Below, one piece after another: positions 683-62,574 of a stretch of 64,000 nucleotides of DNA. The first letter of the stretch is position 1, and each line of letters begins with the position of its first letter. The position numbers were made by a program, and so were the translations under genes. Origin of the DNA: an uncultured Planctomycetia bacterium. Its GTDB lineage: Bacteria; Omnitrophota; Gorgyraeia; Velamenicoccales; Velamenicoccaceae. The stretch is from positions 20,879 to 84,878 of the forward strand of contig CAYYFL010000008.1 of the NCBI GenBank assembly GCA_964471325.1. Direction: 5' to 3'. The notes beneath the pieces are model-generated. The model ran no database searches and was not told the DNA's origin. It saw only the letters and a program-made list of their open reading frames with translations.

Positions 683-702
683 ACAAATACGATCGAGGCG
701 CC

Positions 703-3760: not shown

Positions 3761-3838
3761 GGGAATTATGTCTCGCGATGGCTTGGTCTTTGGAGCCGGC
3801 AAGTTCAGCGGCCCTCCGAAAGATTTTCAGGAGGGGGC

Positions 3839-4606: not shown

Positions 4607-4764
4607 AGTTTTGCAGGCATGGCCTCAGTTGAAAAACGGCCCAGAAGATGACATAATGTGCTGGAATATTTGAAGAAAGGCAAGGGGGGCCATCTTATGC
4701 CGCCGTTCGAAAACCGGGCCTTCAGGGCGGCGGAGGCGGAGATTGATTTTGCGGGAGAAAAAAC

Positions 4765-5067
4765 ATGAAGGGGCCGAAAGTTTACATGGTGATAGAGATC
4801 AAGATCAAAGACAAGGAAAAATACGGCCGGTATGTCGATGAAGTTTATGGTATCGTGCGCCGTCATGGCGGCCGTTATCTGGTCAGGGGCGGCCGCGTCA
4901 CGCCCATGTTCGGAGGCTGGACGCCGGAACGGATGGTTGTGATCGCGTTCGATTCGCTGGAGGATTTAAAGAAGTGTTTCGCGTCTCCAGAATATTCGGC
5001 GGTTGCCCCCCTGAGGGAGACGTCAACCGAAACCAGGTCCGTTATCCTGGAGGGATGCCAGCCATGA
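4765..5067 (+). CDS. DUF1330-family small protein
   Basis: 100-aa dimeric alpha/beta-barrel-type sequence (YMVIEIKIKDKEKYGRY ... VVIAFDSLEDLKKCFASPEY) that I recall as DUF1330. The stop overlaps the next start (ATGA). Confidence 0.6.
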   Translation: MKGPKVYMVIEIKIKDKEKYGRYVDEVYGIVRRHGGRYLVRGGRVTPMFGGWTPERMVVIAFDSLEDLKKCFASPEYSAVAPLRETSTETRSVILEGCQP

Positions 5068-30676: not shown

Positions 30677-31000
30677 ATGCAGATAAATATTATTGCAAAA
30701 CGGAGTGTGTTAAAGATGTGCGCTGTCCTGTGTCTGGTTTTGAGTCTTTCCCTGGCGCTCGCGCCTTTTGTCTTAGCGCAGGTGGATACGAGCCAGGAAC
30801 AGCAGGTTGTCAGTGATTTTGCCACTTTTATCATTAATATTCTCACTGGCCCTGTGTCAAAGATCTTAAGCGCGGTTCTGCTCATTGGAGGGGTGGTTGC
30901 GCTTTTAAACGGAAAACAAGGGGTGGCTATCGCGTGCGGTTTTGGGTTCATGATCCTGATGTTTATACCCAAGATCCTCCAAGGGCTGTTCAAAACATAA
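30677..31000 (+). CDS. VirB2/TrbC-type conjugative pilin precursor
   Basis: Long signal peptide ending LALAPFVLAQ, then two hydrophobic helices (ILTGPVSKILSAVLLIGGVVAL; VAIACGFGFMILMFIP), as in VirB2/TrbC pilins. AGGAGG lies 10 nt before ATG 30677. Confidence 0.55.
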   Translation: MQINIIAKRSVLKMCAVLCLVLSLSLALAPFVLAQVDTSQEQQVVSDFATFIINILTGPVSKILSAVLLIGGVVALLNGKQGVAIACGFGFMILMFIPKILQGLFKT

Positions 31001-31308
31001 TGAAAAAGTGCTGCCGGACCATCGATAGACCTTTGCTTCTTTTCGGCCTGGAACCAGAAGATGTAGGGATCCTGGCTTTGATCAGTGGTTTCTTGATCAT
31101 TTTCTTTGATCCTTTTTATGCTGGCACGGTTTTCTTCGGAGGATGGATACTTTTGAGAATAATGAAACAAGGTAAACCCCAGGGATATCTCGCGCACCTG
31201 TTTTATAAGCACGGGGTGAGGATTAAGGGTTTAATTGATCCGCCGGAACGCGTCGGACGGTATTCGGTTTTTGGGGGAGGTGATCGCGATGCAGATGCAG
31301 AGCTTTAG
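31000..31308 (+). CDS. traL: TraL-like (VirB3-class) T4SS inner-membrane protein
   Basis: IDRPLLLFGLEPEDV resembles F TraL RWFGLPLDEL. KQGKPQGYLAHLFYKHG ... PPERVGRYSV parallels F TraL KKGRGSSWLRDLIYWY ... VPDSCFRQWI. Confidence 0.6.
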   Translation: MKKCCRTIDRPLLLFGLEPEDVGILALISGFLIIFFDPFYAGTVFFGGWILLRIMKQGKPQGYLAHLFYKHGVRIKGLIDPPERVGRYSVFGGGDRDADAEL

Positions 31309-31480
31309 TCTTTTGGAATTGGCGTTAATCGTTTTGATGATTATTTTCTATTTTCTGCCGACCCTGGTGGCGTACTTTAGGCAGCACAAAAACATTCCGG
31401 CTATTTTTGTGCTTAATCTTCTTTTGGGCTGGACTGTTTTGGGATGGGTGAGTTCTTTAGTGTGGTCTTTCATGAAATAA
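31289..31480 (+). CDS. superinfection-immunity (Imm, PF14373-like) small membrane protein
   Basis: FYFLPTLVAYFRQHKNIPAIFVLNLLLGWTVLGWVSSLVWSF matches the YFLPxxxA...N.LLGWT.xGW signature. GGGGGAGGTG RBS. Overlaps the traL end by 20 nt. Confidence 0.7.
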   Translation: MQMQSFSLLELALIVLMIIFYFLPTLVAYFRQHKNIPAIFVLNLLLGWTVLGWVSSLVWSFMK

Positions 31481-31728
31481 ACATATATGGATTTTGTATT
31501 TAACATTTAAGTTGACAAAGGACTTCGTTTTACTATGCTGCTCAAGAGGATTTTGTTATGAACTTGTCCTCAAATAATCTTGATGCTGTATCTTATTATA
31601 TATAAGATAGTTATAATAAATACTGAATTCAAGTTAAAATAATGCATATTTGACTTGATATTTATGTTATGTATGTTATATTTGTTATGGAGGCTGCTAC
31701 TTATTATTATAACCAAAAGGACGGCTAA

Positions 31729-32127
31729 ATGGACATAATAATTACGTCTTGGGCTCTGGATTCGTACTTAGAAATGAAGCATAATAGAGTATTCAGCAAA
31801 GAAGAATATAAAAAGATCATTCGTCCAGATGTATTACGACTTAGGGATTATCCTGATGATCCCAAGTTTGAAAACGAAAAATTTTGGTCGATTGTCGCTG
31901 ATCAAAGTCATAATAAGATTGAAAATGGCTATAAAATGAAATGGCATCAAATTGGCAGTGGCAAAATTCAACTTCGTTTGACTGTGGGAATGTTTTGCAA
32001 TGCTTTTCTTTGCGAGGCATATGTCAAAAGAAATCCGAAGGCGGAACAAAGAAAAATAGCGCGTTTCAAGGTGTTTTTACAATTAATAAGACAAAGTCAA
32101 TATACTGAGAATGGGAGATTATCATGA
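31729..32127 (+). CDS. putative HigB/Gp49-like toxin (RelE/ParE superfamily), uncertain
   Basis: The C-terminal part IQLRLTVGMFCNAFLCEAYVKRNPKAEQRKIARFKVFL resembles the Gp49/HigB pattern (RilY...f.KKt.Ktp..ei..A). ATGA-coupled to a downstream HTH protein. Lies in a very AT-rich tract. Confidence 0.4.
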   Translation: MDIIITSWALDSYLEMKHNRVFSKEEYKKIIRPDVLRLRDYPDDPKFENEKFWSIVADQSHNKIENGYKMKWHQIGSGKIQLRLTVGMFCNAFLCEAYVKRNPKAEQRKIARFKVFLQLIRQSQYTENGRLS

Positions 32128-32618
32128 GAACCGGTGCGTTATTATCAGCCGATAGAAGTGTAGAGCTTATTGAAATAGGACACCAAATGAAACAAAGGGG
32201 GTTGTCTGATGTATTTATTGCAGCTGCCGTTCAGACAGCTTTCGAATTTGAGGGGGTTTATGATTTAATGAAAATGTGGTCAGAAGAGTCGGAGAAAAAA
32301 GAACAAGATGAAGTTATCGCTGATATACAAGAGATGATTGATGAATGTTCTCAGAAAGAAAAGATCGAAGGGACCTATGTGCGTTTTGACGATTTAGATC
32401 AAATTGCCAAAAACATTCGTTCTTTCAAAGATAGCTTGCGAATGATCGTCGAAAAAAAGGGTGGAATTAAGATGGTTGCAGATTTAACCGGCATCCCTCA
32501 GCCATCATTATCTAGATTTTTTAATTCTAGATCGATACCAAGAAGGATAACTTTGTTAAAAATTGCGAGGGCTTTAAATTTGAGCCAGATCCAAATTGCT
32601 ACTGAATGGAGTAGATGA
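32124..32618 (+). CDS. XRE-family HTH protein (putative HigA-type antitoxin/regulator)
   Basis: C-terminal helix-turn-helix VADLTGIPQPSLSRFFNSRSIPRRITLLKIARALNLSQ. Confidence 0.55.
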   Translation: MRTGALLSADRSVELIEIGHQMKQRGLSDVFIAAAVQTAFEFEGVYDLMKMWSEESEKKEQDEVIADIQEMIDECSQKEKIEGTYVRFDDLDQIAKNIRSFKDSLRMIVEKKGGIKMVADLTGIPQPSLSRFFNSRSIPRRITLLKIARALNLSQIQIATEWSR

Positions 32619-32677
32619 AAGAATGTCGTAACTGTGGAATGTGAACATAAAACATATATTCCTATGTTTAAAAAAAA

Positions 32678-32705
32678 CTTGACAAAACGATCTGAAGGTG
32701 TAAAT
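32678..32705 (+). promoter_or_regulatory. candidate sigma70-type promoter
   Basis: TTGACA (32678-32683), 16 nt spacer, TAAATT (32700-32705), in an ORF-free gap. Confidence 0.4.
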
Positions 32706-32711
32706 TAATAA

Positions 32712-32838
32712 TAGATAATTTGGTGTAAGGAGAATCAGAAGCGCGGATTCTCTCTAAAGTTTCAAAAGCAGTCCTATTGGAACAACCAAGGGGCTGGTTT
32801 CTTGAGGTAAAACTCAAGAAGCCAGCCCTTTTTTATTT
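32712..32838 (+). ncRNA. candidate ~125-nt small RNA or attenuating leader upstream of traE
   Basis: Bounded by the promoter above and a strong terminator. It has an internal 7-bp hairpin GAGAATC(32729-35)/GATTCTC(32745-51). No start codon follows the TAAGGAG at 32725. Confidence 0.3.
32791..32838 (+). terminator. rho-independent terminator
   Basis: GGGCTGGTTTCTTGAG / CTCAAGAAGCCAGCCC 16-bp stem (one G.U), 6-nt loop, then TTTTTTATTT. Ends 9 nt before the traE ATG. Confidence 0.75.
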
Positions 32839-32846
32839 GCCCAGAC

Positions 32847-33470
32847 ATGCCAAAATCACTGGAACACAATGAAACTACTAAACGCCCGACTTTCCTTGAG
32901 AAATGGGCCCGGGCTGAACAGACCAGCGCGTTTTTAGGTATGGCCCTTTACGCCTGCATCGCCTTCTGTCTGGCTCTTCTTATCACGGTCTTTAAGTTAT
33001 CCACAAGGTCGCAACCTATTTACTATATTCCAAGCTCGCATGAAGCGGGGATCTCCTATCCGAATCGAATAGAAAAAGAGGCTGTCTGCGCCTTTGCCTC
33101 AAACTGGCTGCTAGACCGCAATAACTTCACTTCCATCACAGTCAAGGAGACCTATGCAAGGGCCATGCGCTACATGGCGCCTGCGCTTCTTTCAAGAACA
33201 AGGGCTGGTCTTGAAGATGAGATTGGCCGGGTTTTGCGCGATAACATTTCATCCTTGTTTTCTTTAAGCCAAGATCCCCAATGGGAGCAATCTGGTAAAG
33301 AATTTAAGGTGATATTGACCGGAGAAAAGTCACTCTTCATGGGAAAAGAAAAACTGGATGACCGCAGTCTTCGCTACACGATCACCTTAGAGAGGGTCTC
33401 TCCGGTTCAGACCAACCCTTATGGCCTGGTTATTGCAGGGGTCAAGCAAGAGCAGATAGGAGAACAATGA
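32847..33470 (+). CDS. traE: TraE-like (VirB8-class) T4SS protein
   Basis: A single N-terminal TM (FLGMALYACIAFCLALLITVF) followed by a periplasmic domain. DNISSLFSL parallels F TraE DNVNSAFFQ. Ends NPYGLVIAGV. No SD is visible before the ATG. Confidence 0.55.
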   Translation: MPKSLEHNETTKRPTFLEKWARAEQTSAFLGMALYACIAFCLALLITVFKLSTRSQPIYYIPSSHEAGISYPNRIEKEAVCAFASNWLLDRNNFTSITVKETYARAMRYMAPALLSRTRAGLEDEIGRVLRDNISSLFSLSQDPQWEQSGKEFKVILTGEKSLFMGKEKLDDRSLRYTITLERVSPVQTNPYGLVIAGVKQEQIGEQ

Positions 33471-47619: not shown

Positions 47620-48132
47620 TTATATCCCGAGGGTCTTCTTGATGTCTTTTATTAAAAGATACAAGTGCAATGGATCAATCGGTGAAGGTTCAAAGCCGAA
47701 ATGTTCATAAAATGATTTAGCACGTTCGTGTTTCGCATGGACGAAAATAGCCCGTCCGCCAATACTGTCAGCCGCGGCAACAATGCGCACCAGCGCATCG
47801 CGCAATAAGGCTTTGCCTAGACCACTACCTTGTTCGATTTTATCGACAGCCAGGCGCGCAAGAATGACCACGGGGACAGGATGGTTGGCCAATCCTTTGC
47901 CTACGCGTTGAGGGGTATCCTCTTTGCTTATGGAGCCGGGGGTGAGGGTGTAATATCCCACAACCTGCTTATTTTTGGTTGTGACATAGGTTCTTGAAGA
48001 ACCATTTTGGTTATTGATGAGCGCAAATTTTCGCAGGTAGGAATTCAGGGCTTCATCCCCGCAATCAAAATCATCGATTGCGTGAGATTCATGGAGCAAA
48101 ACAGGAGTGTCTAAAGAAGATCCTTTACTCAT
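47620..48132 (-). CDS. GNAT-family acetyltransferase toxin (TacT/KacT-like)
   Basis: FDCGDEALNSYL, YVTTKNKQVVGYYTL and RLAVDKIEQGSGLGKALL are typical of DUF1778-partnered GNAT toxins. Overlaps the antitoxin stop by 8 nt. Confidence 0.8.
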   Translation of the reverse strand: MSKGSSLDTPVLLHESHAIDDFDCGDEALNSYLRKFALINNQNGSSRTYVTTKNKQVVGYYTLTPGSISKEDTPQRVGKGLANHPVPVVILARLAVDKIEQGSGLGKALLRDALVRIVAAADSIGGRAIFVHAKHERAKSFYEHFGFEPSPIDPLHLYLLIKDIKKTLGI

Positions 48133-48400
48133 TAAAAATGTTTTGTTCCTGGAAAAGCTTCTTAAGCCTGGGGATTTCTCTGGCCGGGCTATCAAGAGCG
48201 GCACAGAAGGCTTTCCATTGGGCTTGAGGCAGTTGGAAGTGGGTTTTGTCGGCTATCAATTCTTCCGCTTCTTTCAAGGCGCTATCGAGAACAAAAGCTG
48301 ATAGCTTCTTGTGATGAAGGGAGGCCGCATATACAAGAAGATTTTTTTGGGAGCTCTCAATGCGTAAATCAATACGTCTATTTTTTTGTGCTATGGCCAT
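48125..48400 (-). CDS. DUF1778-family RHH antitoxin (TacA-like)
   Basis: RIDLRIESSQKNLLVYAASLHHKKLSAFVLDSALKEAEELI matches the DUF1778 pattern. ATG 48400 is preferred to the track start. Confidence 0.85.
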   Translation of the reverse strand: MAIAQKNRRIDLRIESSQKNLLVYAASLHHKKLSAFVLDSALKEAEELIADKTHFQLPQAQWKAFCAALDSPAREIPRLKKLFQEQNIFNE

Positions 48401-48450
48401 GATTCGTCTCCTTTCTTTAGGTAATAAAAATATAACATATAGTACACACA

Positions 48451-49377
48451 TTGTCCACACTAAATTTAAAATATTTTAAAAAGGCATTTAGCCTCATTTT
48501 GTTGCTAAGCCTGTGTTTTGTTTCCAGCAGGGCTAATGCCCTTGAGCTTGGCGATATCTCCGGGATGATTGATTGGAATTGCCTGGATCTAAAGGTGATC
48601 GGAACCTGTGTTGGGCCTTTTGGCATGCCTGGCATTATCATTATGTACTGGGAGCCGGCACTTCTCATTGAAACTGTCAAGCGGCCCGGTGATACGGTTA
48701 TCGGATCGTTGCAACCCGAGCTCTCAAATCTTGTGACCCAGGCCGTCAAGGATTTCGCTAAAAGTTTAGGCGCATCATCCATGCCTGTTTCAAGCGGATC
48801 AGGCTCATCGAAGATCGATGAGACGAACCTGCAATTTAATGAGGCGCACGTGTATGGGCTTCCTTTTAAAGATGAGATTATGGCATCTTTGGGCATGACA
48901 TGCCCGGACAAGCTTCCGACAGGTTCTTTGATCAAATATCTTTCAGAACTGGATGCTTCGGAGTGGCGAATTGGGGTTCTGGAAGCCTCTAACCCCAAGA
49001 GCATGGCTTCAGCTGCAGCTGGCCCGGCCTGCGCTGTGATAGCCAGTTTTATGAATGATTTGTGCATGGGGTATTGGGGAGCGACCTATCCAAGAAGAGG
49101 CTTTTTTACGCATCAAAGCCAGGTCGTAGGAAGCGCGGTTGCAGCGGTCCGGGCTGTGAGCATTGCTTCAGGTTTAAATATACCTGGACATGTTGTTTTT
49201 GAAGGCACTGGTTTTGTGCCGTTTTTTGAAAACGACAAGCTGCAATTGATTTATCCTGTTGTATCAGGGTGCATCAAAATAGGCCAGAATCCGGCATCCT
49301 GGGAATCCGGCAAGCTGTCCGCTTCAGGCAAATACCTGTGGCTGTATTGGCGAAGAAGAATATGCTGCGTGTATTAG
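48451..49377 (+). CDS. traU: TraU-like periplasmic T4SS protein
   Basis: Signal peptide. MYWEPALLIETVKRPGD parallels F TraU SMWEPARLIEFQRVPGC. TTG is the only possible start before the signal peptide. Confidence 0.75.
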   Translation: MSTLNLKYFKKAFSLILLLSLCFVSSRANALELGDISGMIDWNCLDLKVIGTCVGPFGMPGIIIMYWEPALLIETVKRPGDTVIGSLQPELSNLVTQAVKDFAKSLGASSMPVSSGSGSSKIDETNLQFNEAHVYGLPFKDEIMASLGMTCPDKLPTGSLIKYLSELDASEWRIGVLEASNPKSMASAAAGPACAVIASFMNDLCMGYWGATYPRRGFFTHQSQVVGSAVAAVRAVSIASGLNIPGHVVFEGTGFVPFFENDKLQLIYPVVSGCIKIGQNPASWESGKLSASGKYLWLYWRRRICCVY

Positions 49378-51882: not shown

Positions 51883-52096
51883 CTTGGTTTATCTTGAGGA
51901 GTAGAACCTCAAATGATAAAATGCAGACAGGTTTATCATAATTCTTGGTTACTCCTTGATGCAAGTATCGCATATAATTTAAGGGATTTGGAATAAAATA
52001 GTTATGGCAAAGCAATTGTTAATGCAATCTTATTTTGGTGTGATATATAATGATAAACGATAATAAGCAATGTAACCATTGGGAAGAGGTCTACCC

Positions 52097-52273
52097 ATGG
52101 TAAAAATTGAAACTTATCTTACGGTAAGGCAAGTTGCGAGACAGCTGGGCTTATCGGAATATATGGTTAGGCAGCTTATCCGCGATAAGGAAATGCGGGC
52201 GACAAAAATCAGACAGTGACGAGTAAGGCCTGAGGATTTAGATAATTTTATCAGGGCGAGGACTAAAAAGTAG
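52097..52273 (+). pseudogene. excisionase/AlpA-type HTH gene interrupted by an in-frame TGA at the conserved Trp position
   Basis: Manual translation gives MVKIETYLTVRQVARQLGLSEYMVRQLIRDKEMRATKIRQ-TGA(52217-52219)-RVRPEDLDNFIRARTKK-TAG. The family consensus is ...vkiGrrWripredLe.fl. Confidence 0.5.
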
Positions 52274-52365
52274 AAAGTGTTAAAGACAATTATTCCCTTA
52301 CAAAAACAGGTCGTTAATGGAAGCTGTCTTTGTTGTTTCAGAGATTTAATAGGGAGGTTTAAACA

Positions 52366-54039
52366 ATGAAGAAGAAATCACAGATTAAGCAATTGGAATT
52401 ACCATTCAAGGTTAATAAGGAAGTCGTTAGCCATTTGAGTTTGGGCTTATACAGAAATTTCGCAAGAGCGATTAAGGAACTGATCTCTAATGCATACGAT
52501 GCTGGTGCCACAGAAGTTAAAATCAAGCTGGATCTCGATAAGGCAGAGATTATTGTGAGGGATAACGGCCATGGGATGAGTCTCGAGGATATCGAAAATA
52601 AATTTCTTACAATTGGTTTTGTAACTTCTCCATCTGACAAACCAGATGAACTCGGAAGATATCGAATAGGCACATTTGGGATAGGTTGTCTTTCTGTTTT
52701 TCCATATTGCGATACTATCCATGTAATAACAAAAAAACGAGACAATGACGAATTAATTGAGCTAAATATTGTAACGCAGCGTTTTTTCAGTGGGGTACCA
52801 TCTGATATTGACAAAGAAAAGGCACAATGTATTATTCATAAAAGCGATTTACCCAAAAAAGAGGGGGAAACAATCATATCTCTGAAAAACATAAAACCTC
52901 ACCTAATTAAAGAGCTGCGACAGAAACGAGGCTCTGGTTGGTCCAGCATAGATAAGTTTAGCGGTTTTGAAAAATTTAAATGGACACTGAGTCAATATGC
53001 GCCAATTGAGTTTTCTTCGGATCATAAAGAATTACATGATTTTTTCAGCGTGTCTAAAAGAGTCTCCATGAGACTATGGCTTGATGGAGAAGAGCTTTTT
53101 CGGAATATTCCTGAAAATATGGAAATCCTTGAAAAAGGAGAAGAAAAATTTGGGAAAGTCGTAGTTAAATATGTTATTACAACATCAAAAAAACCGGTCG
53201 AGCCAGAGGAAGCAAGAGGGCTGCAAGTCAGACTCAGAGATGTCGCAGTGGGATTGCCAACGGATTTTGAGGTTACAAAATTTACTGGCAAAGTTCCAGG
53301 GAAATTGAATTATTTATCAGGAGAAGTCTGCATTATGGAGGGTCTTGATTCAGCGCTTATGATTGACAGAGATAATTTTTCGTATACAGAAGAAGTGGCT
53401 GAAATGCAGGAGTTTTTCAGAAAGAAGCTGATTAAATGGAACGACGTTCAGGAAAAGTGGGCTTCAAAAGACAAGGATATTTATGAAGCATTGATGCCGC
53501 TGAAAGATTCTGAGCCGATAATCAATGAATTGAAAAAAGCAAAAATAATCCATTTCTCAAAAGAAAGATTAAGGCTTCCTAGGGAGTCTTTAGTAAAAAG
53601 AGTCAAAGACAAGTTGATCTCGCCAGCTGAAACAATAAAAAAGGCGCTGTCTGATAAGACGGATTTTAAGATCATCTCAAAGAAGCAAAGTGTTAAGGCT
53701 AATCAGCCTGCATTGGAAATCAAGCAAAAAGAAAAATCAATAGTTATTTATGAGGATCATCCTGAATTTTCTGAAATAATTGAAGTTGAAAACAAGAAAT
53801 TTTCTGTCCTTTACGATGAGTGGAATTACAAGAAAACCCAGTATGCATTGTGCAAATTTGAGAAAGACGAAAAGAACGTTGTTTTTAACTCATCTCATCC
53901 TCTCTTTAAGAGCAAAATAAATGATGAGATTATTAAGAGAATAGCCCTTGGTTTCCTCTTGATTGCTAAGAATAGGAAGGATGGGGGAAAATTGCTCAGT
54001 GAATTAAATGGCCTCCTTGAAGATGTGTTCAAGAGATAA
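52366..54039 (+). CDS. GHKL-superfamily ATPase (HATPase_c_3 / MORC-paraMORC-like)
   Basis: Bergerat-fold boxes: N-box KELISNAYDAGA, G1 VRDNGHGMS, G2 IGTFGIGCLS. The ~380-aa C-terminal region is unassigned. Confidence 0.8.
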   Translation: MKKKSQIKQLELPFKVNKEVVSHLSLGLYRNFARAIKELISNAYDAGATEVKIKLDLDKAEIIVRDNGHGMSLEDIENKFLTIGFVTSPSDKPDELGRYRIGTFGIGCLSVFPYCDTIHVITKKRDNDELIELNIVTQRFFSGVPSDIDKEKAQCIIHKSDLPKKEGETIISLKNIKPHLIKELRQKRGSGWSSIDKFSGFEKFKWTLSQYAPIEFSSDHKELHDFFSVSKRVSMRLWLDGEELFRNIPENMEILEKGEEKFGKVVVKYVITTSKKPVEPEEARGLQVRLRDVAVGLPTDFEVTKFTGKVPGKLNYLSGEVCIMEGLDSALMIDRDNFSYTEEVAEMQEFFRKKLIKWNDVQEKWASKDKDIYEALMPLKDSEPIINELKKAKIIHFSKERLRLPRESLVKRVKDKLISPAETIKKALSDKTDFKIISKKQSVKANQPALEIKQKEKSIVIYEDHPEFSEIIEVENKKFSVLYDEWNYKKTQYALCKFEKDEKNVVFNSSHPLFKSKINDEIIKRIALGFLLIAKNRKDGGKLLSELNGLLEDVFKR

Positions 54040-54047
54040 GGGTTACT

Positions 54048-54773
54048 ATGGCAGATTTAGACACGCTGAGAGGGCAACTAATAGAGGAGCTGTGGCTTCC
54101 TGTTGTTAAAGAAGCAGGCAAACATTTTTATGGTAGGCGAAAGAATAAAAGAATGAGGCTTTTTACGCTCACAGATGGAGTTCTTTTCGGCGAACTGATA
54201 AGATTTGAGGGGGAGGGCTTGATACAAAGAGGAGATGCTGTATTGTGGGTTAGCAATATGATTAAAGCAGTCAGGGCGGAAACAGAGTCAAGAGGCTCTG
54301 TTTATAGCGGCTCAATATGCGACGAGGAAGTGTTAGGCACAGTATGCCCCTTAAGATCCTTGTTTCCATGCGATATTTTGAATCTTGATTTTTCATCACA
54401 AGATTATAATTCTAATAATCAAAGAATTGAGAAAGAGATAGGGAAAACAGAACAATTTTTGTGTTTGCAGAACCAAAAGCGCAATCCTGGGTTCGTAGTC
54501 TTGCAGAGTACTGTTATTGATGCAGAGGTTTTAGATAGGGATGCTATCAAAAATTTTTCTGATTCTATGCACGAGAATGACTGGGGTGGTTTGACAATAG
54601 ATGGCTTTCCTCAACTTGTTGCAGACAATGGGCAAAAGAGGAATTTTATCAAACAAGTATTGCAATCCTTGGGTCAGAAATATAAATACAGAGCTTTAAA
54701 AATAACAGATGCTGTTAAGATAATTGATGCCAACCAGCAACTAATTTCAATAGCTGGTATTTTTACGAGGTAA
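54048..54773 (+). CDS. hypothetical protein (possible Rossmann/methyltransferase-like fold)
   Basis: Tightly packed in the operon. LFPCDILNLDFSSQD resembles the D.i.LDpfG-type motif of some MTase-fold proteins. No confident family. Confidence 0.45.
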   Translation: MADLDTLRGQLIEELWLPVVKEAGKHFYGRRKNKRMRLFTLTDGVLFGELIRFEGEGLIQRGDAVLWVSNMIKAVRAETESRGSVYSGSICDEEVLGTVCPLRSLFPCDILNLDFSSQDYNSNNQRIEKEIGKTEQFLCLQNQKRNPGFVVLQSTVIDAEVLDRDAIKNFSDSMHENDWGGLTIDGFPQLVADNGQKRNFIKQVLQSLGQKYKYRALKITDAVKIIDANQQLISIAGIFTR

Positions 54774-54777
54774 CAAT

Positions 54778-55563
54778 ATGAAAACCTTCAGATCAGACAG
54801 ATTGCCTAGATTGACGAAAATTATGTATGACAGCCAACTCAGGCTGAATACTAAAAATTGGGAAGATACACTAAAAGCGAACCATCAAGAAGTTGAGCGG
54901 TTGTTGGAAATGATAAGCATTTTCGATTCCTGGAGAACTTCTTTGGAACGAGCTTACGGTGATGTAGCTAGGGATTTAATTAAAGAAACATTTATGGATG
55001 CTTATATGTCTGTGCATTTTGCTTGTATGGCCTTATATAAGCAAGCCCATGTATCTTTGAGGACTGAGCTTGAGACAGCTTTAAGGTTAGTATATTTTTC
55101 TAGCCATCCCGTTGAATTCAAGTGGTGGAGGGATGATAAAGATTATTTTCATGGGAGACATGTTTGGGGAGATAAATTTGATTATTTCAGAAATTTAGAA
55201 TATTTTCAGCGCTTTGAACAGCGGGCAGTTAAATTATTTGAAACAGAAAATAGGAATAATCCAAATAATATAGGGAAACTATATAAAATTTTATCGAAGT
55301 ATGTGCACAGCGGCTTTCCAGCTTTTTTAACAACCATGCAAAGCGTTGCTCCAGTATATAAACGAGCAGACCTTAATCTTTGGATTGTTAATTTCAAAGA
55401 GGTCCAAAAATGCATTAATACTATTCTTGCTTTGGGTTTTTCTGCTGAATTTAAAGCCTTTGATGCTATTGTACAAAGGAATGTCTTAAGAGTGATCAGA
55501 GACAGAAATTATAAGCGTGGTTTAAAACAGGTGTTAGGGTTACGAATTCAAGGACGTATATAG
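54778..55563 (+). CDS. hypothetical all-alpha protein (weak HEPN/Abi-like features)
   Basis: Tightly packed in the operon. Contains an Rx6H string (RLVYFSSH) and LSKYVHSG. No confident family. Confidence 0.45.
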   Translation: MKTFRSDRLPRLTKIMYDSQLRLNTKNWEDTLKANHQEVERLLEMISIFDSWRTSLERAYGDVARDLIKETFMDAYMSVHFACMALYKQAHVSLRTELETALRLVYFSSHPVEFKWWRDDKDYFHGRHVWGDKFDYFRNLEYFQRFEQRAVKLFETENRNNPNNIGKLYKILSKYVHSGFPAFLTTMQSVAPVYKRADLNLWIVNFKEVQKCINTILALGFSAEFKAFDAIVQRNVLRVIRDRNYKRGLKQVLGLRIQGRI

Positions 55564-55566
55564 AAA

Positions 55567-56658
55567 ATGGGACAAGAAGCGATCGAAAATCAATTGGATA
55601 TTTTGCATAAGGCTCCTTCTACTAGATATCAGGGAAGCAAGAGAAGCATATTAGCTTGGATATACGAAAACCTAAAAGACATTCAGTTCGAAAGTGTCCT
55701 TGATGGCTTTGGGGGGACGGGAAGCGTCAGTTATTTATTTAAACTGATGAATAAGAAAGTAACGTTCAATGATATCCTTCCGTCAAACCATATGACGGGC
55801 ATTGCTCTTATTGAGAATGATTGCATAACTCTAGATGAAGATGATTTAGAGTTTATATCCCACCGAAATGGCTTCAACTATCCGACTTTCATCGAAGACA
55901 CCTTTAAAGGAATATATTACACTTCTGGTGAGAATAGGTTGCTTGATGTGTTGGCCTTAAATATAAGGATGCTTTCTGAAAAATATCAAGGCGATGTTTT
56001 AGCCAAGAAACAGGCGTTGGCTTATTATGTTTTGTTTCAGGCTTGTTTATGTAAACGGCCTTTCAATCTCTTTCATAGAAAAAATCTCTCACTTAGGACT
56101 GCGAGAAACATAAAGAGAACATTTGGAAATAAGAAGACTTGGAATACTCATTTTGAAACATTTCTAAAAAGATTTAATGCAGAGGTTTCCCAGAAAGTCT
56201 TTTCCAATGGTCTTGTAAATAAAGCCATTTCCCAGGACATTGTGGCTATAAAAAAGGAAGATTTTGACCTTGTGTATTTAGACCCACCCTATGCAAGAGC
56301 AGATGAAAAAACACCAAAAGATTATCACGAGCTGTATCATTTTCTCGACGGTTTTGTTGATTATGATAATTGGCCGAAAAATATAAATTTAAACACAAAT
56401 AATAAGAGGATGTTTAAGCAAAAAAACCATTGGGATGAAGGAAAGATTGAAGACAACTTTGATGCTTTGTTCAGGAAGTTTAAGGATTCAATAATTGTTG
56501 TCTCCTACGGAGAGCCCGGATTCCCTTCCATTTATAAAATCAAACAGCTTCTTTCGAAATATAAGTCAAAAGTAAAAATTGCCAAAAAGGAATACAAATA
56601 CAAGTTGAATCACCGGAACGGGCACGGCTTATATGAGGTTTTAATAATAGGGGTTTAG
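55567..56658 (+). CDS. Dam-type (D12 class) N6-adenine DNA methyltransferase
   Basis: N-terminal YQGSKRSILAWI, SAM motif DGFGGTGSVS, catalytic LVYLDPPYA. Confidence 0.85.
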   Translation: MGQEAIENQLDILHKAPSTRYQGSKRSILAWIYENLKDIQFESVLDGFGGTGSVSYLFKLMNKKVTFNDILPSNHMTGIALIENDCITLDEDDLEFISHRNGFNYPTFIEDTFKGIYYTSGENRLLDVLALNIRMLSEKYQGDVLAKKQALAYYVLFQACLCKRPFNLFHRKNLSLRTARNIKRTFGNKKTWNTHFETFLKRFNAEVSQKVFSNGLVNKAISQDIVAIKKEDFDLVYLDPPYARADEKTPKDYHELYHFLDGFVDYDNWPKNINLNTNNKRMFKQKNHWDEGKIEDNFDALFRKFKDSIIVVSYGEPGFPSIYKIKQLLSKYKSKVKIAKKEYKYKLNHRNGHGLYEVLIIGV

Positions 56659-57038: not shown

Positions 57039-57536
57039 ATGAATATGGATAATGAGGAAAGAGTGCCTTACAGATTGCTCTATGCGATCTTTCTTGATTC
57101 CTGCGCCTTTTATCCGTCGCAAAAAGATCAAAAATTAGCGAGGAATAAATTGTGGGAGTTTGAGGATAAAGGGCTTATTAAAACAATGGAAAAAGCAGAA
57201 GCTACTAATGAAGAAATTGAACGGGCCCCTAAAGAACTTAGAAAAAGAATAGAGAGGGAGTCCAGAATAATTAATTGCGATTCGATAGAAACCAGGGAAG
57301 ACCGAGAAGCATTAAGTGAAATAGAGAAACTGTTATTTTCTAATAAACAAAAATTAGCGGACAACGAAAAGCGAGATGCTAGAAATATATTTTGTGCCAA
57401 GAAAATGGGATGCGACTTATTTGTTACAGTTGATAATTGTCATATTCTAAAGAGAGCAGAAATAATAAAGGAAAAATTCAGATTTCGTGTCGTCATGCCA
57501 ACCCAATGCGTAAAAATAATTTCAGAGGAATTGTAA
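57039..57536 (+). CDS. PIN-like domain protein (putative nuclease), uncertain
   Basis: N-terminal AIFLDSCAF and C-terminal GCDLFVTVDNCHIL resemble the first and last acidic motifs of PIN domains. GAAGGAG RBS. Confidence 0.4.
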   Translation: MNMDNEERVPYRLLYAIFLDSCAFYPSQKDQKLARNKLWEFEDKGLIKTMEKAEATNEEIERAPKELRKRIERESRIINCDSIETREDREALSEIEKLLFSNKQKLADNEKRDARNIFCAKKMGCDLFVTVDNCHILKRAEIIKEKFRFRVVMPTQCVKIISEEL

Positions 57537-57617
57537 AAAATGACCTGTTCTTGATTTTGCAGTTTTTGTTTGGCCGCAGTAAGTAAGTCCTCCTTTTTTT
57601 TCCTCGCCAAAAATACT

Positions 57618-57820
57618 CAAGGCTTTAATTTCGTCAACAAAATTCAGGAAATAATTCGTCTCCACTCTTGTGGTCTGCCTCAAGAGTGACGTGTCCCTTC
57701 GGGGAGTCCTCAATTTTTTCCTCGAATCCAGGAAGGTTCGCTTACTCCATCCGTCGTTCGCTCTCCTTCGGCCAAGCCCTGTTTTATTGACTAAACCGCC
57801 GTTTGTGGTCTGCCTCAAAC
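57618..57820 (+). repeat. structured intergenic module, copy A
   Basis: Direct repeat of 58990-59190. Contains two hairpins with the invariant loop TGGTCTGCCT (57657-57691, 57800-57821). Confidence 0.85.
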
Positions 57821-57870
57821 GCCTTTAAAGGCCTTGAGTTGCTTTTTGGCGTAAAAGAAAGGAGGACCAC

Positions 57871-58946: not shown

Positions 58947-58978
58947 ATGGCTTCGTCTCCTTTCTGTTTGTTTTCGCT
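58947..58978 (-). repeat. inverted copy of the RBS/start region of gene 59247 (anti-RBS arm of module B)
   Basis: ATGGCTTCGTCTCCTTTCTG(TTTG)TTTTCGCT is the reverse complement of 59221-59248 apart from a 4-nt insertion. Weaker similarity continues to about 58850. Confidence 0.85.
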
Positions 58979-58989
58979 TTTGTAACCGT

Positions 58990-59190
58990 AAGCCCTGATT
59001 TTCGTCAATAAAATCACGAAAATAATTCGTCTCCGCTTTTGTGGTCTGCCTCAAAAGCAGCTTCGCCCCTTCGGGGAGTCCTCAATTTTTTTCGCGACCC
59101 AGGAAGGCTCTCGCGCTCCGTCCGTCGTTTGTTCGCCTTCGGGCAGGCCTGTTTTTTTGACAAAAACCGCCGTTTGTGGTCTGCCTCAAC
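58990..59190 (+). repeat. structured intergenic module, copy B
   Basis: Direct repeat of 57618-57820, with hairpins at 59035-59058 and 59167-59194 carrying the same loop TGGTCTGCCT. Confidence 0.85.
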
Positions 59191-59246
59191 CGGCTTCAGG
59201 CGCTTAGGTTAAATTCTCCAAGCGAAAACAGAAAGGAGACGAAGCC

Positions 59247-59531
59247 ATGAAAAACACGAACAAGAAAGAAAACGAACAAAAATTCGACGAAGGGGTGTTG
59301 AGGGCTGACGGCTGCATGATGAGGCATAACCAGCCGCGTCAGGCGGAATTCCGGACGCGCGAAGAGGATTTTCCCGAATCTTCCTTCGGAAAGTCAGCGT
59401 ACTGGGAAGAGAGAAGACTGCTCAACCGCGTCCATGAGCTCATGGCTATGGGTTTTAAGATCAGGCCTGAGCAAACCCTGGAAGAGTTTGTCCAGGCGCA
59501 TGAGGATGCGTTTACAGAGGAGGCGCTATGA
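59247..59531 (+). CDS. hypothetical protein (94 aa)
   Basis: GAAAGGAG RBS. The N-terminal K/N/E/Q-rich leader (MKNTNKKENEQK) is similar to the optional leader of the spoVG-like gene (MRPRTKKQEQNQ). Confidence 0.45.
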   Translation: MKNTNKKENEQKFDEGVLRADGCMMRHNQPRQAEFRTREEDFPESSFGKSAYWEERRLLNRVHELMAMGFKIRPEQTLEEFVQAHEDAFTEEAL

Positions 59532-59710
59532 AGGTATCTGAGTTTCCTGAAAGCTTGAGGAAGATCATCTTGTCCAGCGTGGATGAGATGAATCTGGAGC
59601 AAAAAGTAACCATGGCCCAGGTGAGTATTTCCTTCCGCGTGGGCCAGGAGATCCACGTTGAAAACTGGGAATACAAGGAAAATACCGCAGAAGGAGGGGT
59701 CAGATGTTGA
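59528..59710 (+). CDS. hypothetical protein (60 aa)
   Basis: ATGA-coupled to the previous gene. No family recognised. Confidence 0.35.
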   Translation: MKVSEFPESLRKIILSSVDEMNLEQKVTMAQVSISFRVGQEIHVENWEYKENTAEGGVRC

Positions 59711-60045
59711 CGGAAAGCGGATTAGGGCAATTCACAGGCACGACGCAATGGTTCAGGCACTTGAGCGGTTATCTTTATACGGACGGTGTGCAATATGTGG
59801 CTGAACAAGGCGGCGCCTACTGGCTTTTGGACAAGATCCTGTTTATAACCCGGGCCAAGGCGAAGCTGTGGGAGTTTGGGGTCTGGAGGCTGTCCGTGCG
59901 CGAGGACCGTTCAGCCGTGCTTGTCTGTGAAGACGGCAATTATAACAAGCTTTTTGAGGAGAAGATCGACTGGACGGATTTTCCGCTCAATAAAATTGAA
60001 TTGTGGTTTGAAAACGGCGTCCTGATACTGCCGAGCGAACACTAA
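59704..60045 (+). CDS. DUF6876-like plasmid/ICE leading-region protein
   Basis: FTGTTQWFRHLSGYLYTDGVQYVAEQGGAYWLLD matches my recollection of the DUF6876 N-terminal signature. Not verified. Confidence 0.45.
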   Translation: MLTESGLGQFTGTTQWFRHLSGYLYTDGVQYVAEQGGAYWLLDKILFITRAKAKLWEFGVWRLSVREDRSAVLVCEDGNYNKLFEEKIDWTDFPLNKIELWFENGVLILPSEH

Positions 60046-60067
60046 TCAAAGAAAGGAGGTGAATACT

Positions 60068-60298
60068 ATGCAATTAAACGATCTGAATGGGAAAACCACC
60101 ATCAAAGTCGCAGGAGAAGAAGTCGAGGTCTGTGCTTCTGATTCTGTCAAGGACACCTTAAAAAGGCTCCTTGAGGAAAAGGGCATCGATTCCTTCACGA
60201 TTCTCGTTGACGGCAATGAGGTGGCCTCAACGAACGATCTGCCAGAGACGTTTGCAGATCACGAAATCGAGGTGCAAAGATACGTCAAGGCAGGCTAA
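60068..60298 (+). CDS. ThiS/MoaD-like beta-grasp ubiquitin-like protein ending in Ala-Gly (PRTRC protein C-like)
   Basis: 76 aa. The pattern IKVAGEEVEV...VKDTLKRLLEEKGI..FTILVDGNEV...L.ETFADHEIEVQRYVKAG-stop follows the ThiS/MoaD layout. GAAAGGAGG lies 8 nt before ATG 60068. Confidence 0.6.
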   Translation: MQLNDLNGKTTIKVAGEEVEVCASDSVKDTLKRLLEEKGIDSFTILVDGNEVASTNDLPETFADHEIEVQRYVKAG

Positions 60299-60363
60299 AA
60301 GAAAGGAGAAAGAACGCGGAAAAGAGGGGAGCGACTCCCCTCTTTTCCTTTTTAGAGGTCAAA

Positions 60364-60966
60364 ATGATTGATGAAAAACTAATACACAACGCAAGGCCGG
60401 CATCCAGAATCATAGAAGAGATTGACGACTCCTGGCGCCAATTTGTTGAGAACTTAAAAGACCAGGCGTTCAAAGTCCCCTTTAAAGGAGACTATAGGTG
60501 TTGTGTCAAGAATGACTTTTTTCACGTTGAAGCCTACGTAGGTCCTCTTGTGATCGATAAGCTCTACGATGGCCGCAACACCTATCTGCTCAAGACCCCG
60601 ATTAAGCATGAGGCCTTTACGCTCTATGGCGAATATGACCAGGCCGGGGACTTTTGCAACTTTGTTTCAGACCCTGAGATCGGCTGCCACTATCTGGCCA
60701 TGAGCAATATGGACGCCGGCCGCAAGATCTGCACAGGAGACCTCCAGGTTAACAACGCGAGCCTCAATTCGCTTGAAGCGCTCAAAACAATGGCATTAGA
60801 GGTTATCAAGTCTTTCAGGCTCATTAATCTGACATCTTTAGGCACCGTGATATTGCCTGAAGAGCATTCTATCCTTAAAGATATCTTATCTGATAAGTCT
60901 AAAGGCCCGGATATGAAAACAAAGAGCCTGCTAGACGCAAATTTGATCGAACCATTATTAAAATAG
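60364..60966 (+). CDS. candidate E2-like (UBC-fold) protein (PRTRC protein B-position)
   Basis: Sited between the Ubl and E1 genes. HYLAMSNMDAGRKICTGDL resembles the UBC active-site stretch HPN(I/V)...G.IC. Confidence 0.4.
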   Translation: MIDEKLIHNARPASRIIEEIDDSWRQFVENLKDQAFKVPFKGDYRCCVKNDFFHVEAYVGPLVIDKLYDGRNTYLLKTPIKHEAFTLYGEYDQAGDFCNFVSDPEIGCHYLAMSNMDAGRKICTGDLQVNNASLNSLEALKTMALEVIKSFRLINLTSLGTVILPEEHSILKDILSDKSKGPDMKTKSLLDANLIEPLLK

Positions 60967-60977
60967 GAGAAGAAACA

Positions 60978-61922
60978 ATGCCTCAAGGAGCTATTTACTC
61001 GCGGCAGGAGTTAATCGACCAACTGGACATACCGGAAATCGCTACCGTCATAGGGTGCGGCGGCACAGGATTCTGGACCGCGGTGTTTCTGGCGATGAGC
61101 GGGGTGGAAGAATTGGTCCTGGTGGATCGCGATATCATCGAGATATCCAATCTTAACAGATTGCTCTTGGAAGAGCGGCACGTGGGAAAGAAAAAGATCG
61201 AAGTTCTAAAAGAAATCATCTCAGGTGTTAGAAAATCAACAAGGATCGAAACCCATGACATGCGCATTGAAAAATCAGCGGACTGCCAGGTCCTGCGTGG
61301 GAAAGTATTCTGCTGTACAGATAATTTGAAAAGCCAGCAGCTTATCTGTGCATATGCCAAGAAAAACGACTTAACCTATCAGAGAATAGGCTATGACGGC
61401 ACGGTTTTGAACGTCTCCAGGGCCTTTCCCTTGTCTTTTAAAGAAGTCGAAGGCCAGGAAGGCTATACGTTTACCCCTTCTTGGGTCGTTCCAGCGGCAC
61501 TGGCAGCCGCAGCCGGCGTCGCCTCGGTCATGTATAAGCGGCTGTCTTTGATGGAAGATTTGGGCAAGTTGCACATACAGCATTCTTCCTTTGTCCCTGA
61601 GAAGATCTTGGATGAAGCCAAGCAGGAACGTGAAGATTACATCACAGATCATATCGATGATTATCTTCCCAGCGGTTACGGCTATTGCGACGACTGCAGC
61701 CATTGCGATGACTGCAATAGGGTGGACCCAGAAGATCATTGCTCAGACTGCGACAAGGAATACACCCAAGCTGATCTTGACGAAAAAATCGCTGAAGAGA
61801 AAGAAGAATGGCTGAAAGAAACAATCGAAGAGATCAAATCAGGTGAGATCTCCAGGGAAGAATTAAAAGAAGCTTTGAAGCAATGGTTTAAAATCACTCA
61901 AAGGAGGCCAAAAAATGAATAA
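60978..61922 (+). CDS. ThiF/MoeB/E1-like adenylating enzyme with Cys-rich acidic C-terminal tail
   Basis: ATVIGCGGTGFWTAVFLAMSGV (nucleotide loop) and LVDRDIIEISNLNRL (ThiF signature). Tail YCDDCSHCDDCNRVDPEDHCSDCD. Confidence 0.85.
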   Translation: MPQGAIYSRQELIDQLDIPEIATVIGCGGTGFWTAVFLAMSGVEELVLVDRDIIEISNLNRLLLEERHVGKKKIEVLKEIISGVRKSTRIETHDMRIEKSADCQVLRGKVFCCTDNLKSQQLICAYAKKNDLTYQRIGYDGTVLNVSRAFPLSFKEVEGQEGYTFTPSWVVPAALAAAAGVASVMYKRLSLMEDLGKLHIQHSSFVPEKILDEAKQEREDYITDHIDDYLPSGYGYCDDCSHCDDCNRVDPEDHCSDCDKEYTQADLDEKIAEEKEEWLKETIEEIKSGEISREELKEALKQWFKITQRRPKNE

Positions 61923-62574
61923 TATCCAAAACAACGCAAGCAATATCTTAAACGTCAATATCAAAAATTATACGGACTGCGGATGGTGTTCGGATAAGGC
62001 CAACGAGGAGATCCTGAATATCCCTTGGTTCATCTGGAGCCAGTGGCTGTATATTTCCCGGAGGATGGGCAAGAAAGAGTGGGGAGCGATATTTTGGGTC
62101 AAGGATAACACCGTAACCGGTTTTAAGATTCCCAAACAGGAAGTCAACTCGGTTGAGTGCGCATTCAAAGAGGAATTGGGCGGGGACGGGATTATCCATT
62201 CCCATCATGATATGGGTGCTTTTCATTCGACTCAGGATGACGCCCACGCGCGCAATCTTTATCAGTATTCGATAGTTCTTTCGAATTCAGATGGAAGCGT
62301 CTGTACGAAAAGACTCAAACTGCCCTGCGGAGCTTTCGGCTATATGCAGGTGCGGCTTGGCATCGTTGATCTGCCGGAAATCGATCTGGAAAAAATCGGC
62401 GAGAAAAAGAGAGAAGCGACCTTGGAGCAATCCGAAGAGGAATTATGCCGACAGGCCCAATGCGACGAGCTGCAAATGCAGTGTGAAGAATGCATGAGGT
62501 CTGATTGCCATGGTTGCGAGATTTTTCTTGCTATGCAGAAAATAGAGGCCGGAATGTTTGGGACCGGGTTTTAG
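61915..62574 (+). CDS. JAB/MPN (JAMM) metalloprotease
   Basis: Exact JAMM spacing HxH-x7-S-xx-D in IIHSHHDMGAFHSTQDD, with an upstream Glu (FKEELGG). Cys-rich C-terminus. Overlaps the E1 stop by 8 nt. Confidence 0.85.
   Translation: MNNIQNNASNILNVNIKNYTDCGWCSDKANEEILNIPWFIWSQWLYISRRMGKKEWGAIFWVKDNTVTGFKIPKQEVNSVECAFKEELGGDGIIHSHHDMGAFHSTQDDAHARNLYQYSIVLSNSDGSVCTKRLKLPCGAFGYMQVRLGIVDLPEIDLEKIGEKKREATLEQSEEELCRQAQCDELQMQCEECMRSDCHGCEIFLAMQKIEAGMFGTGF

Follow-up and report, generated by a model that had tools for sequence, protein, structure and literature searches.

Four tightly packed genes raise the question of whether they form a single functional unit and, if so, of what kind. They occupy positions 52366 to 56658 of a 64,000-nucleotide stretch (the window, meaning the whole stretch of DNA analyzed here) of contig CAYYFL010000008.1 in assembly GCA_964471325.1, which was obtained from an uncultured Planctomycetia bacterium (Omnitrophota in the GTDB lineage). 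A preliminary description had delineated these four co-directional open reading frames (ORFs) with exact coordinates and had proposed a candidate methylase-linked GHKL ATPase system in which the ATPase and two unassigned proteins would do the sensing and effector work. The cassette is 4.3 kb long, and the gaps between its genes are 8, 4, and 3 nt. Its genes are as follows.

Gene 1, 52366-54039, + strand: 557 amino acids (aa), GHKL (Bergerat-fold) ATPase, MutL/MORC-like.
Gene 2, 54048-54773, + strand: 241 aa, predicted class-I S-adenosylmethionine (SAM)-methyltransferase fold with noncanonical motifs.
Gene 3, 54778-55563, + strand: 261 aa, basic all-alpha protein, distant relative of DUF5677, candidate effector.
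Gene 4, 55567-56658, + strand: 363 aa, D12-class N6-adenine DNA methyltransferase.

We give a probability of about 0.5 to the reading that this cassette is a self-contained, mobile, methylation-marked, ATP-driven GHKL system resembling restriction-modification (R-M) and serving immunity, the defense function being read from its genomic context only. The evidence begins with the constancy of the four-gene unit. Loci were gathered from the neighborhoods of divergent homologs and from a scan of 185,579 representative genomes, followed by tblastn searches with all four proteins; three loci cut by contig ends and one unrelated GHKL gene were left out. A lack of neighborhood conservation had been named in the preliminary description as grounds for abandoning the idea. 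Instead, all four genes were present in each of the 16 other distinct complete loci, so that the arrangement is not due to chance, and gene order and strand were kept in 15 of them. The hosts belong to eight bacterial lineages (Omnitrophica, Dehalococcoidia, Desulfobacteraceae, Pseudomonadota, Pirellulales, Phycisphaerae, Gemmatimonadota, and anammox-type Planctomycetota) and three archaeal ones (Aenigmatarchaeota, Woesearchaeota, and Thorarchaeota). The D12 methylase directly follows genes 1 to 3 in 15 of the 16 loci. The only rearranged copy, in a metagenome-assembled genome (MAG) of Thorarchaeota (locus L026 in our numbering, 668-5230), has its methylase 5' of the other genes and on the opposite strand; this methylase diverges more than any other (40% identity), and its DPPY motif reads DPPS; the copy may be a decaying or rewired variant. 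All-against-all BLAST of the flanking ORFs revealed neither a conserved fifth gene nor a small 5' controller. The four genes are thus one co-inherited mobile unit that crosses phyla and domains, and this co-inheritance, together with the defense-type and mobile contexts described below, supports the system that had been proposed.

Gene 4 falls within Pfam MethyltransfD12 (PF02086; 1.8e-15, 57.8 bits against a cutoff of 22 bits) and matches the generic MTase_II models of PADLOC (PDLC03261, 4.2e-50), with a weak match to mad2 (1.9e-4). It had been described beforehand as a Dam-type, D12-class adenine methylase. The class stands; gene 4 is not an orthologue of Dam (GATC), because it scores 27.6 bits against TIGR00571, far below the cutoff of 114.85 bits. 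Its motifs clearly mark it as a D12 adenine methylase predicted to be catalytically intact: TRYxGSKR, D46-x-F48-G49-G50 (DxFGG), and D239-P240-P241 are invariant, and 9 of 10 sequences have Y242. No locus has lost the methylase, which retains its catalytic motifs and is the most conserved of the four components, with gene 2 the least conserved, in agreement with the usual R-M pattern. Charge calculations showed that the methylase, gene 3, and a linker in gene 1 are strongly basic and that gene 2 is not.

The sequence of gene 1 likewise firmly indicates a GHKL ATPase with intact ATP-binding motifs. The protein satisfies the definition of the superfamily (Pfam HATPase_c_3, 4e-18, 66.2 bits against a cutoff of 25 bits), and the Bergerat motifs (E38/N42/D45, D66xGxG70, and G102xxGxG107) are invariant across 36 homologs. 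Complete Bergerat boxes followed by a large unassigned C-terminal region had been noted from the letters of the sequence, and both features were confirmed; past approximately residue 180 (some 380 residues), searches of Pfam, NCBIfam, PADLOC, PHROGs, and PDB sequences with the single sequence or with profiles returned zero matches. The protein is conserved over its whole length in the alignment of the 36 homologs, and its C-terminal two-thirds are common to at least 215 clusters at 90% identity, archaeal ones included. Four parts can be distinguished.

52366-52905, + strand: GHKL ATP-binding domain, approximately residues 1 to 180, the sole part that matches any library.
52783-53397, + strand: middle domain, residues 140 to 344, highly conserved, with no match in any library.
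53398-53730, + strand: basic linker, residues 345 to 455, Lys/Arg-rich (net charge of about +11), poorly conserved.
53731-54036, + strand: C-terminal domain, residues 456 to 557.

The middle domain contains 42 invariant columns, including R246-N247, P280/E282/Q287/R289, and R335-D336. Its profile found nothing in the PDB, and it has no sequence-level match to the S5 domains of MutL and MORC. By its position, as judged from the MutL/MORC architecture (PMC2292703), it is possibly a transducer (S5-like) domain. The linker is a candidate nucleic-acid-binding arm, given its composition. The C-terminal domain carries the invariant residues H465, Y483, D484, C496, N508, and H511 and is a candidate metal-binding/nuclease or dimerization domain. 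No profile similarity was detected between this domain and gene 2 or gene 3; a likeness of the gene 1 C terminus to gene 3 around an 'SSHP' string was considered and dropped, since profile comparison did not support it.

These features bear on a different division of labor, in which gene 1, as a divergent relative of the BbrUII/HgiDII enzymes, would be the sole restriction endonuclease, cutting through H465/D484/C496/N508/H511, and genes 2 and 3 would be accessory proteins for specificity or regulation. The GHKL domain is indeed closest to this family: its best named match is the NCBIfam BbrUII/HgiDII restriction endonuclease model NF050001 (1.1e-29; the next NCBIfam family, sacsin, reaches 4e-12), and it also matches the PADLOC REase_II model (PDLC03485, 5.8e-19). 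Moreover, MutL, paraMORC3/VcSduA, and paraMORC5 carry or are predicted to carry C-terminal nucleases, and typical metal ligands (His, Asp, Cys, Asn, and His) are invariant among the final 100 residues of gene 1. However, the alignment to NF050001 covers only model positions 3 to 171 of 659, and its score (103.5 bits against a curated cutoff of 550 bits) shows that gene 1 is not a full-length member of the family; PADLOC REase_II, TmtA, and MzaB match gene 1 solely over the ATP-binding domain. The profile of the C-terminal domain had zero matches among PDB sequences, the last 100 residues are electrically neutral, and a nuclease confined to gene 1 would leave unexplained two further strictly conserved proteins with invariant polar clusters of their own. 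We therefore regard this arrangement as distinctly unlikely.

Gene 2 had zero matches in Pfam, NCBIfam, PADLOC, and PHROGs, and neither its sequence nor its profile matched any PDB chain. Its family is small, comprising only 20 clusters (90% identity) among 5.8 billion. An AlphaFold2 model built from the family alignment (predicted local distance difference test [pLDDT] score, 85) has the strand order of class-I methyltransferases, with the terminal beta6-beta7 hairpin. A Foldseek search of the PDB with this model gave 103 matches at E values of <=1e-3, and all those among the matches listed were methyltransferases; the top match was METTL6 (1.4e-6), and others included NTMT1, DnrK/RdmB, TYW2, and NNMT. 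The modeling thus clearly points to a class-I SAM-methyltransferase fold, predicted to lack the canonical SAM-binding motifs. A hint of such a fold had previously been drawn from the string LNLDFSS; the strand order and the Foldseek matches bore this guess out. The string (residues 111 to 117) lies within the invariant N112-x-D114-F115-x-S117-Q118, which sits at beta-4, the position of the catalytic loop, and W16, W67, E80, and E128 are also invariant. The Gly-rich motif I is absent: L-T-L-T-[DNHS], with no conserved Gly, follows beta-1. The acidic residue expected for SAM binding at the end of beta-2 is missing as well; past beta-2, neither Asp nor Glu is conserved, and W67 is the residue that does not vary. 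Because these motif positions were assigned from predicted secondary structure, gene 2 possibly binds a SAM-type cofactor through other means. The protein is near neutral (median isoelectric point [pI], 6.35) and is the fastest evolving of the four, with 25 to 70% identity to the window copy. We considered gene 2 as a degenerate paralogue of the adjacent D12 methylase, and hhalign ruled out this origin.

Gene 3 scores 17.5 bits on Pfam DUF5677 (PF18928), below the gathering threshold of 27.1 bits. Matches to this model were obtained for 27 of the 29 members of the gene 3 family, all of them subthreshold (best E value, 1.8e-5), and an exhaustive search with the gene 3 profile collected 596 representatives at E values of <=1e-3, among which several remote relatives exceed the gathering score (29 to 31 bits). 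Because nearly all of the family matches the model and remote relatives pass its threshold, gene 3 appears, by sequence comparison, to be a divergent branch of the DUF5677 superfamily and not a formal member. The likeness lies in the R-x3-E ... H-P-x-E ... S-x3-H core; the difference lies in the score, and DUF5677 is itself without known function. The invariant residues of the gene 3 family are E70, D74, K88, R95, E99, R103, H110, E113, S173, and H177, of which R95-x3-E99, H110-P-x-E113, and S173-x3-H177 form the core common to the wider superfamily. With a median pI of 9.6 and a net charge of +15, gene 3 is a strongly basic protein, and its AlphaFold2 model (pLDDT, 87) is all-helical, with 13 helices, four of them long. 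No significant structural match was found with Foldseek in the PDB or BFVD; no PDB match reached an E value of <=1e-3 (best E value, approximately 1), and PDB chains yielded no match to its sequence or its profile.

The helical fold and an Rx6H string had been read earlier as a weak indication of a HEPN domain. The helices are predicted as described, and the string exists as R103-x6-H110, which does not vary among members of the cassette family; the HEPN assignment stays tentative. This assignment matters for an alternative in the style of PrrC and RloC, in which gene 3 would be a metal-independent RNase of the HEPN type that the GHKL-methylase complex keeps inactive; the sensing of unmethylated DNA, or inhibition of the methylase or the restriction part by a phage, would release it to cut host tRNA or mRNA in abortive infection. 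HEPN proteins, as defined in PMC3710099, have a core of four helices in an up-down bundle and a conserved Rx4-6H motif where helix 3 ends, the Arg being followed, as a rule, by a polar residue; in the model, R103-x6-H110 does fall where a long helix ends, and the break is at H110. Ymh-family HEPN domains fused to paraMORC GHKL ATPases have been documented in R-M neighborhoods and have been proposed to act as PrrC does (PMC3710099). The residue that follows R103 is Leu, however, not the usual polar N, D, or H of HEPN domains, and most remote DUF5677 relatives have N, S, L, G, or F where R103 would stand, while R95, E99, H110, E113, S173, and H177 persist in them. The only Foldseek match of appreciable probability, which also had the highest probability, was 1ufb (TT1696; probability, 0.69; E value, 2.5; template modeling score of 0.58 on the target), which we take to be a HEPN protein; Csm6 appeared at rank 36. 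Neither match is significant, hhalign comparisons with the Ymh and HepT HEPN proteins encoded in the loci analyzed gave probabilities of 0.5% and 0.2%, respectively, and there were zero matches to the HEPN families of Pfam among the 29 gene 3 members. We consider abortive infection through a HEPN-type RNase an unlikely, if serious, alternative.

Remote relatives of gene 3 offer a further view of its role. They occur in two- to four-gene units with unrelated nucleoside triphosphatases (NTPases). One recurrent operon encodes a 279-aa ParA-like ATPase together with proteins of 134, 255, and 145 aa, of which the 255-aa protein is DUF5677-like (copies at L035 488-2936, L036 232-2680, and L030 2-1771). 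This operon resembles the pair formed by ParA/Soj and the MAE_18760 HEPN protein, which has been proposed as a toxin-antitoxin system (PMC3710099), a resemblance that also speaks for the HEPN-type alternative. A second setting was observed on a megaplasmid of Clostridium butyricum (NZ_CP073278.1; L031 5226-9329), where a large serine recombinase is followed by a 236-aa gene 3 relative and an overlapping 559-aa ORC/CDC6-like AAA+ protein with a tail resembling the RNA polymerase alpha subunit's C-terminal domain; all three genes are annotated as hypothetical. This arrangement agrees with the reported enrichment of DUF5677 near serine recombinases (PMC12632615). In that study, a DUF5677 member lying near serine recombinases was chosen as a defense candidate (PMC12632615); we found no reported phenotype for it. 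Gene 3 is, then, basic and helical, its clustered polar residues are conserved, and its relatives pair with unrelated NTPases. The pairings with a ParA-like ATPase and an ORC/CDC6-like AAA+ protein point to a swappable effector module, and we infer that such exchange of NTPase partners is conduct typical of the effector modules of conflict systems.

With these assignments, a methylation-marked immune system could work as follows. The gene 4 methylase would mark host DNA at a fixed short motif. Gene 1 would dimerize on ATP, as MutL and MORC do, and its basic linker would clamp or loop DNA. Gene 2, neutral and fast evolving, may be a noncatalytic reader or regulator that couples the methylation state or an invader cue to the ATPase, which would license a nuclease on unmethylated DNA. 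The nuclease would most likely be gene 3, with the H/D/C/N/H domain at the C terminus of gene 1 as an alternative or second catalytic site, and DNA would be the more likely target. More tentatively, and with the odds against it, the cassette may represent a new ATP-dependent class of self/non-self discrimination, in which a catalytically dead methyltransferase-fold subunit reads a methylation- or SAM-related cue and a GHKL clamp licenses a DUF5677-type enzyme.

The genomic contexts of the cassette are those from which defense was read. The flanks of different copies are unrelated to each other and often contain R-M, toxin-antitoxin, or integrase genes. In Omnitrophica UBA6215 (L004 3604-16729), the cassette is an insertion separating hsdR from hsdS in a Type I R-M operon, which also includes a Ymh-family HEPN gene and three unannotated genes before hsdM, a locus that illustrates R-M operons as insertion hot spots for other defense genes. 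On a JGI/ENA sediment contig (L008 3101-6871), a different unit of three genes comes directly before the cassette. It encodes an N6_N4 DNA methylase, a GHKL ATPase of 605 aa, and a protein of the 'MjaV' family (223 aa) and gives the island a second R-M-type system that contains a GHKL protein; GmrSD is encoded farther 5'. One copy adjoins a HepT/MNT pair, and other neighbors include integrases, further DNA methylases, and a Schlafen/AlbA_2 gene with a ResIII helicase. In a Pseudomonadota MAG (L017 12704-17134), a 1,477-aa protein with a sacsin-type GHKL domain and a C-terminal NOV_C domain, another candidate large GHKL defense gene, is encoded approximately 400 nt 3' of the cassette.

In the window, the cassette has a guanine-plus-cytosine (GC) content of 0.36 to 0.39, compared with 0.43 to 0.56 elsewhere, except in a second low-GC patch at 31 to 33 kb. 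Genes of F-type conjugation lie 5' of it (TraE at 32847, TraU, a TraF-like gene, and TraH, which ends at 51882), and SpoVG, DUF6876, ThiF, and JAB genes lie 3' of it. From the low-GC patch, the conjugation genes, and the flanking gene content, we conclude that the cassette is recently acquired cargo of an F-type conjugative element. No repeats bounding the low-GC insert were found.

These contexts argue against a nonimmune function of the cassette as a module for methyl-directed DNA repair or epigenetic control, analogous to Dam-MutL-MutH. Such a module would account for the joining of a Dam-class methylase with a MutL-like ATPase, and the occurrence of the cassette in archaeal lineages could be counted in its favor, since many archaeal lineages lack MutS and MutL. 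Yet the cassette is extremely sporadic, with 15 loci encoding a relative, 14 of them of the cassette family, among the 185,579 representative genomes. It has no MutS-like partner, and it is found as low-GC cargo on a conjugative element, inserted in an R-M operon, and near other defense genes. A repair or epigenetic role is very unlikely on these grounds.

The conjugative setting itself suggests another possibility, that the cassette serves the establishment of the element in a new host, its methylase protecting the transferred DNA in advance and the other proteins countering the immunity of the recipient. It lies just 5' of two elements of approximately 280 to 300 nt (57587-57867 and 58947-59248) that share blocks of 78 to 94% identity and are 1,371 nt apart. 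Folded as single-stranded DNA, each gives a single hairpin that is long and imperfect (free energies of -58.8 and -71.7 kcal/mol; z scores of -7.5 and -8.7, respectively), and each abuts the ribosome-binding site and ATG of the next + strand gene (a SpoVG-like gene at 57871 and a 94-aa ORF at 59247). Neither element has an Rfam match. They presumably resemble the single-strand (Frpo/ssi-type) promoters of plasmid leading regions, and owing to this likeness, the region that bears them may be the leading region of the conjugative element. Against an establishment role stand the chromosomal location of most other loci, which have no nearby conjugation genes; the absence of the cassette from 72,556 reference plasmids; and its composition, a four-gene unit with an ATPase being atypical of an anti-restriction methylase. 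Of the alternatives weighed here, this one seems the least probable.

How, then, does the cassette compare with systems that have been described? The preliminary description had found no named system to which it belongs, and this still holds: we detected no marker proteins of the named systems of PADLOC-DB v2 (BREX, DISARM, Dnd/Ssp, MADS, Mza, Druantia, and others), genes 2 and 3 had no PADLOC model (no match at E values of <=1), and those that hit gene 1 are partial-domain matches. Full-text literature searches found no published description of the cassette. The background on which the first description drew, that paraMORC-type ATPases are linked to R-M operons with methylases, is correct; MORC/paraMORC GHKL ATPases were predicted in R-M operons by Iyer, Abhiman, and Aravind in 2008 (PMC2292703), and of the described themes this association comes nearest to the cassette. 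Like those ATPases, gene 1 combines a MutL-like GHKL domain with a conserved C-terminal extension and an operonic DNA methylase, is sporadic and laterally mobile across bacteria and archaea, and may correspond to the proposed ATP-driven clamp or looping engine of a restriction complex. A D12 methylase was found with the GHKL gene in 16 of 16 loci, and R-M genes were common in their flanks. In contrast, the cassette lacks a superfamily-II helicase and any recognizable restriction endonuclease-fold (RE-fold), HNH, Vsr, or TIR partner; its fixed partners, the methyltransferase-fold and DUF5677-like proteins, are not described in PMC2292703; and its methylase is an adenine (D12) enzyme, whereas MORC/paraMORC systems mostly have cytosine methylases. 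The paraMORC groups are recognized by ExxxH in S5 (paraMORC2), an RE-fold nuclease (paraMORC3), TIR (paraMORC4), or an HxH domain (paraMORC5) (PMC2292703). Gene 1 shows none of these C-terminal signatures: it has no Pfam RE-fold, DUF4263, or TIR match, and no HxH or ExxxH is invariant in the alignment of its homologs.

Other comparisons are similarly partial. The BbrUII/HgiDII Type II enzymes provide the closest GHKL-domain match (1.1e-29 and, for the PADLOC model, 5.8e-19) and have a DNA methylase partner, but only the first ~170 residues align, and the enzymes are single polypeptides of approximately 610 to 660 aa, a function that appears to be split across three proteins in the cassette. 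VcSduA (Shedu type I-D, paraMORC3) shares an N-terminal GHKL domain, which is thought to gate its nuclease; it requires both ATPase and nuclease for phage defense (PMC12137116) and so is antiphage by experiment. It consists of one polypeptide, whose nuclease is of the DUF4263 PD-(D/E)xK type, and has no methylase; the cassette has no DUF4263 match but a strictly conserved methylase and two extra subunits. PrrC/EcoprrI, RloC, and the Ymh-HEPN-paraMORC proteins (Anantharaman et al. 2013, PMC3710099) likewise embed an NTPase and a helical effector in R-M loci, and the last, with GHKL ATPase, helical effector, and methylase in one context, would come closest in architecture should gene 3 be an RNase. 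Gene 3 differs in being a separate gene and not a fusion and in having neither detectable sequence similarity nor significant structural similarity to Ymh, HepT, or HEPN Pfam families. Mza, finally, is a multigene defense system with a MutL-like GHKL protein (MzaB) that weakly matches gene 1 (2.4e-6 in PADLOC and 4.1e-6 in NCBIfam); only the ATP-binding domain aligns (25 versus 850 bits), and the other Mza components are absent.

Several findings weigh against an immune system of the kind that we favor. Pfam, NCBIfam, PADLOC, PHROGs, profile searches of the PDB, and Foldseek recognized no nuclease fold among the four proteins, and the role of gene 2 beyond its fold is guesswork. Some loci have housekeeping flanks (L012 and L025). 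The absence from reference plasmids extends to reference phages, and the only relative on a reference plasmid is a 22%-identity homolog of gene 3, on the Clostridium butyricum megaplasmids. All hosts of the cassette are uncultivated.

The surroundings of the cassette in the window contain further features of note. Upstream, the region between traH and gene 1 is the likely site of the cassette promoter.

51883-52365, + strand: traH-gene 1 intergenic region, 483 nt, likely cassette promoter region.

Two sigma-70-like sites lie in it, at 51894-51922 (with a TG extension) and 51913-51942; they are consensus matches only, and their number in this region does not exceed the expectation from shuffled sequences. 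An Rfam scan of 51.5 to 59.6 kb gave zero matches. Immediately after the cassette and within the same low-GC patch, a 165-aa ORF (57039-57536) has no Pfam or PHROGs match and is not kept beside the cassette in other loci. The second low-GC patch (31000-33000; 0.37 to 0.39), just 5' of traE, encodes a 132-aa ORF without a family and a 164-aa protein with a C-terminal HTH_3/addiction-module-antidote-like domain. Amid the conjugation genes, a GNAT acetyltransferase toxin and a TacA-like antitoxin (Pfam TacA1, 1.1e-23) are encoded on the - strand at 47620-48460. Further 3', DUF6876 (59704-60045) precedes a gene group at 60059-62574 that consists of a 79-aa ORF and a 200-aa ORF, both without a family, a ThiF/E1-like gene (60978-61922), and a prokaryotic JAB gene (61915-62574). 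The region 59704-62574 has the look of a cassette for ubiquitin-like conjugation, such as conjugative elements often carry, and we presume that the ThiF/JAB group is of the PRTRC type.

To our knowledge, almost no prokaryotic MORC/paraMORC ATPase has been studied experimentally; how a GHKL clamp, a methylase, and a nuclease act together is a question that also bears on how eukaryotic MORCs read epigenetic marks. Because it is compact (4.3 kb), is fixed in composition, and occurs in both prokaryotic domains, the cassette is a tractable model for such work, and its status as cargo on a conjugative element shows a route by which systems of this kind spread. It could also give a first function to two orphan families, the degenerate methyltransferase-fold protein and the DUF5677 superfamily, the latter now seen with three unrelated NTPase partners. 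If the more tentative reading given above, that of a new class of self/non-self discrimination, is true, DUF5677 (about 600 representative clusters) would be a family, unrecognized until now, of effectors that target nucleic acids under the control of NTPases and whose fold is without a solved relative.

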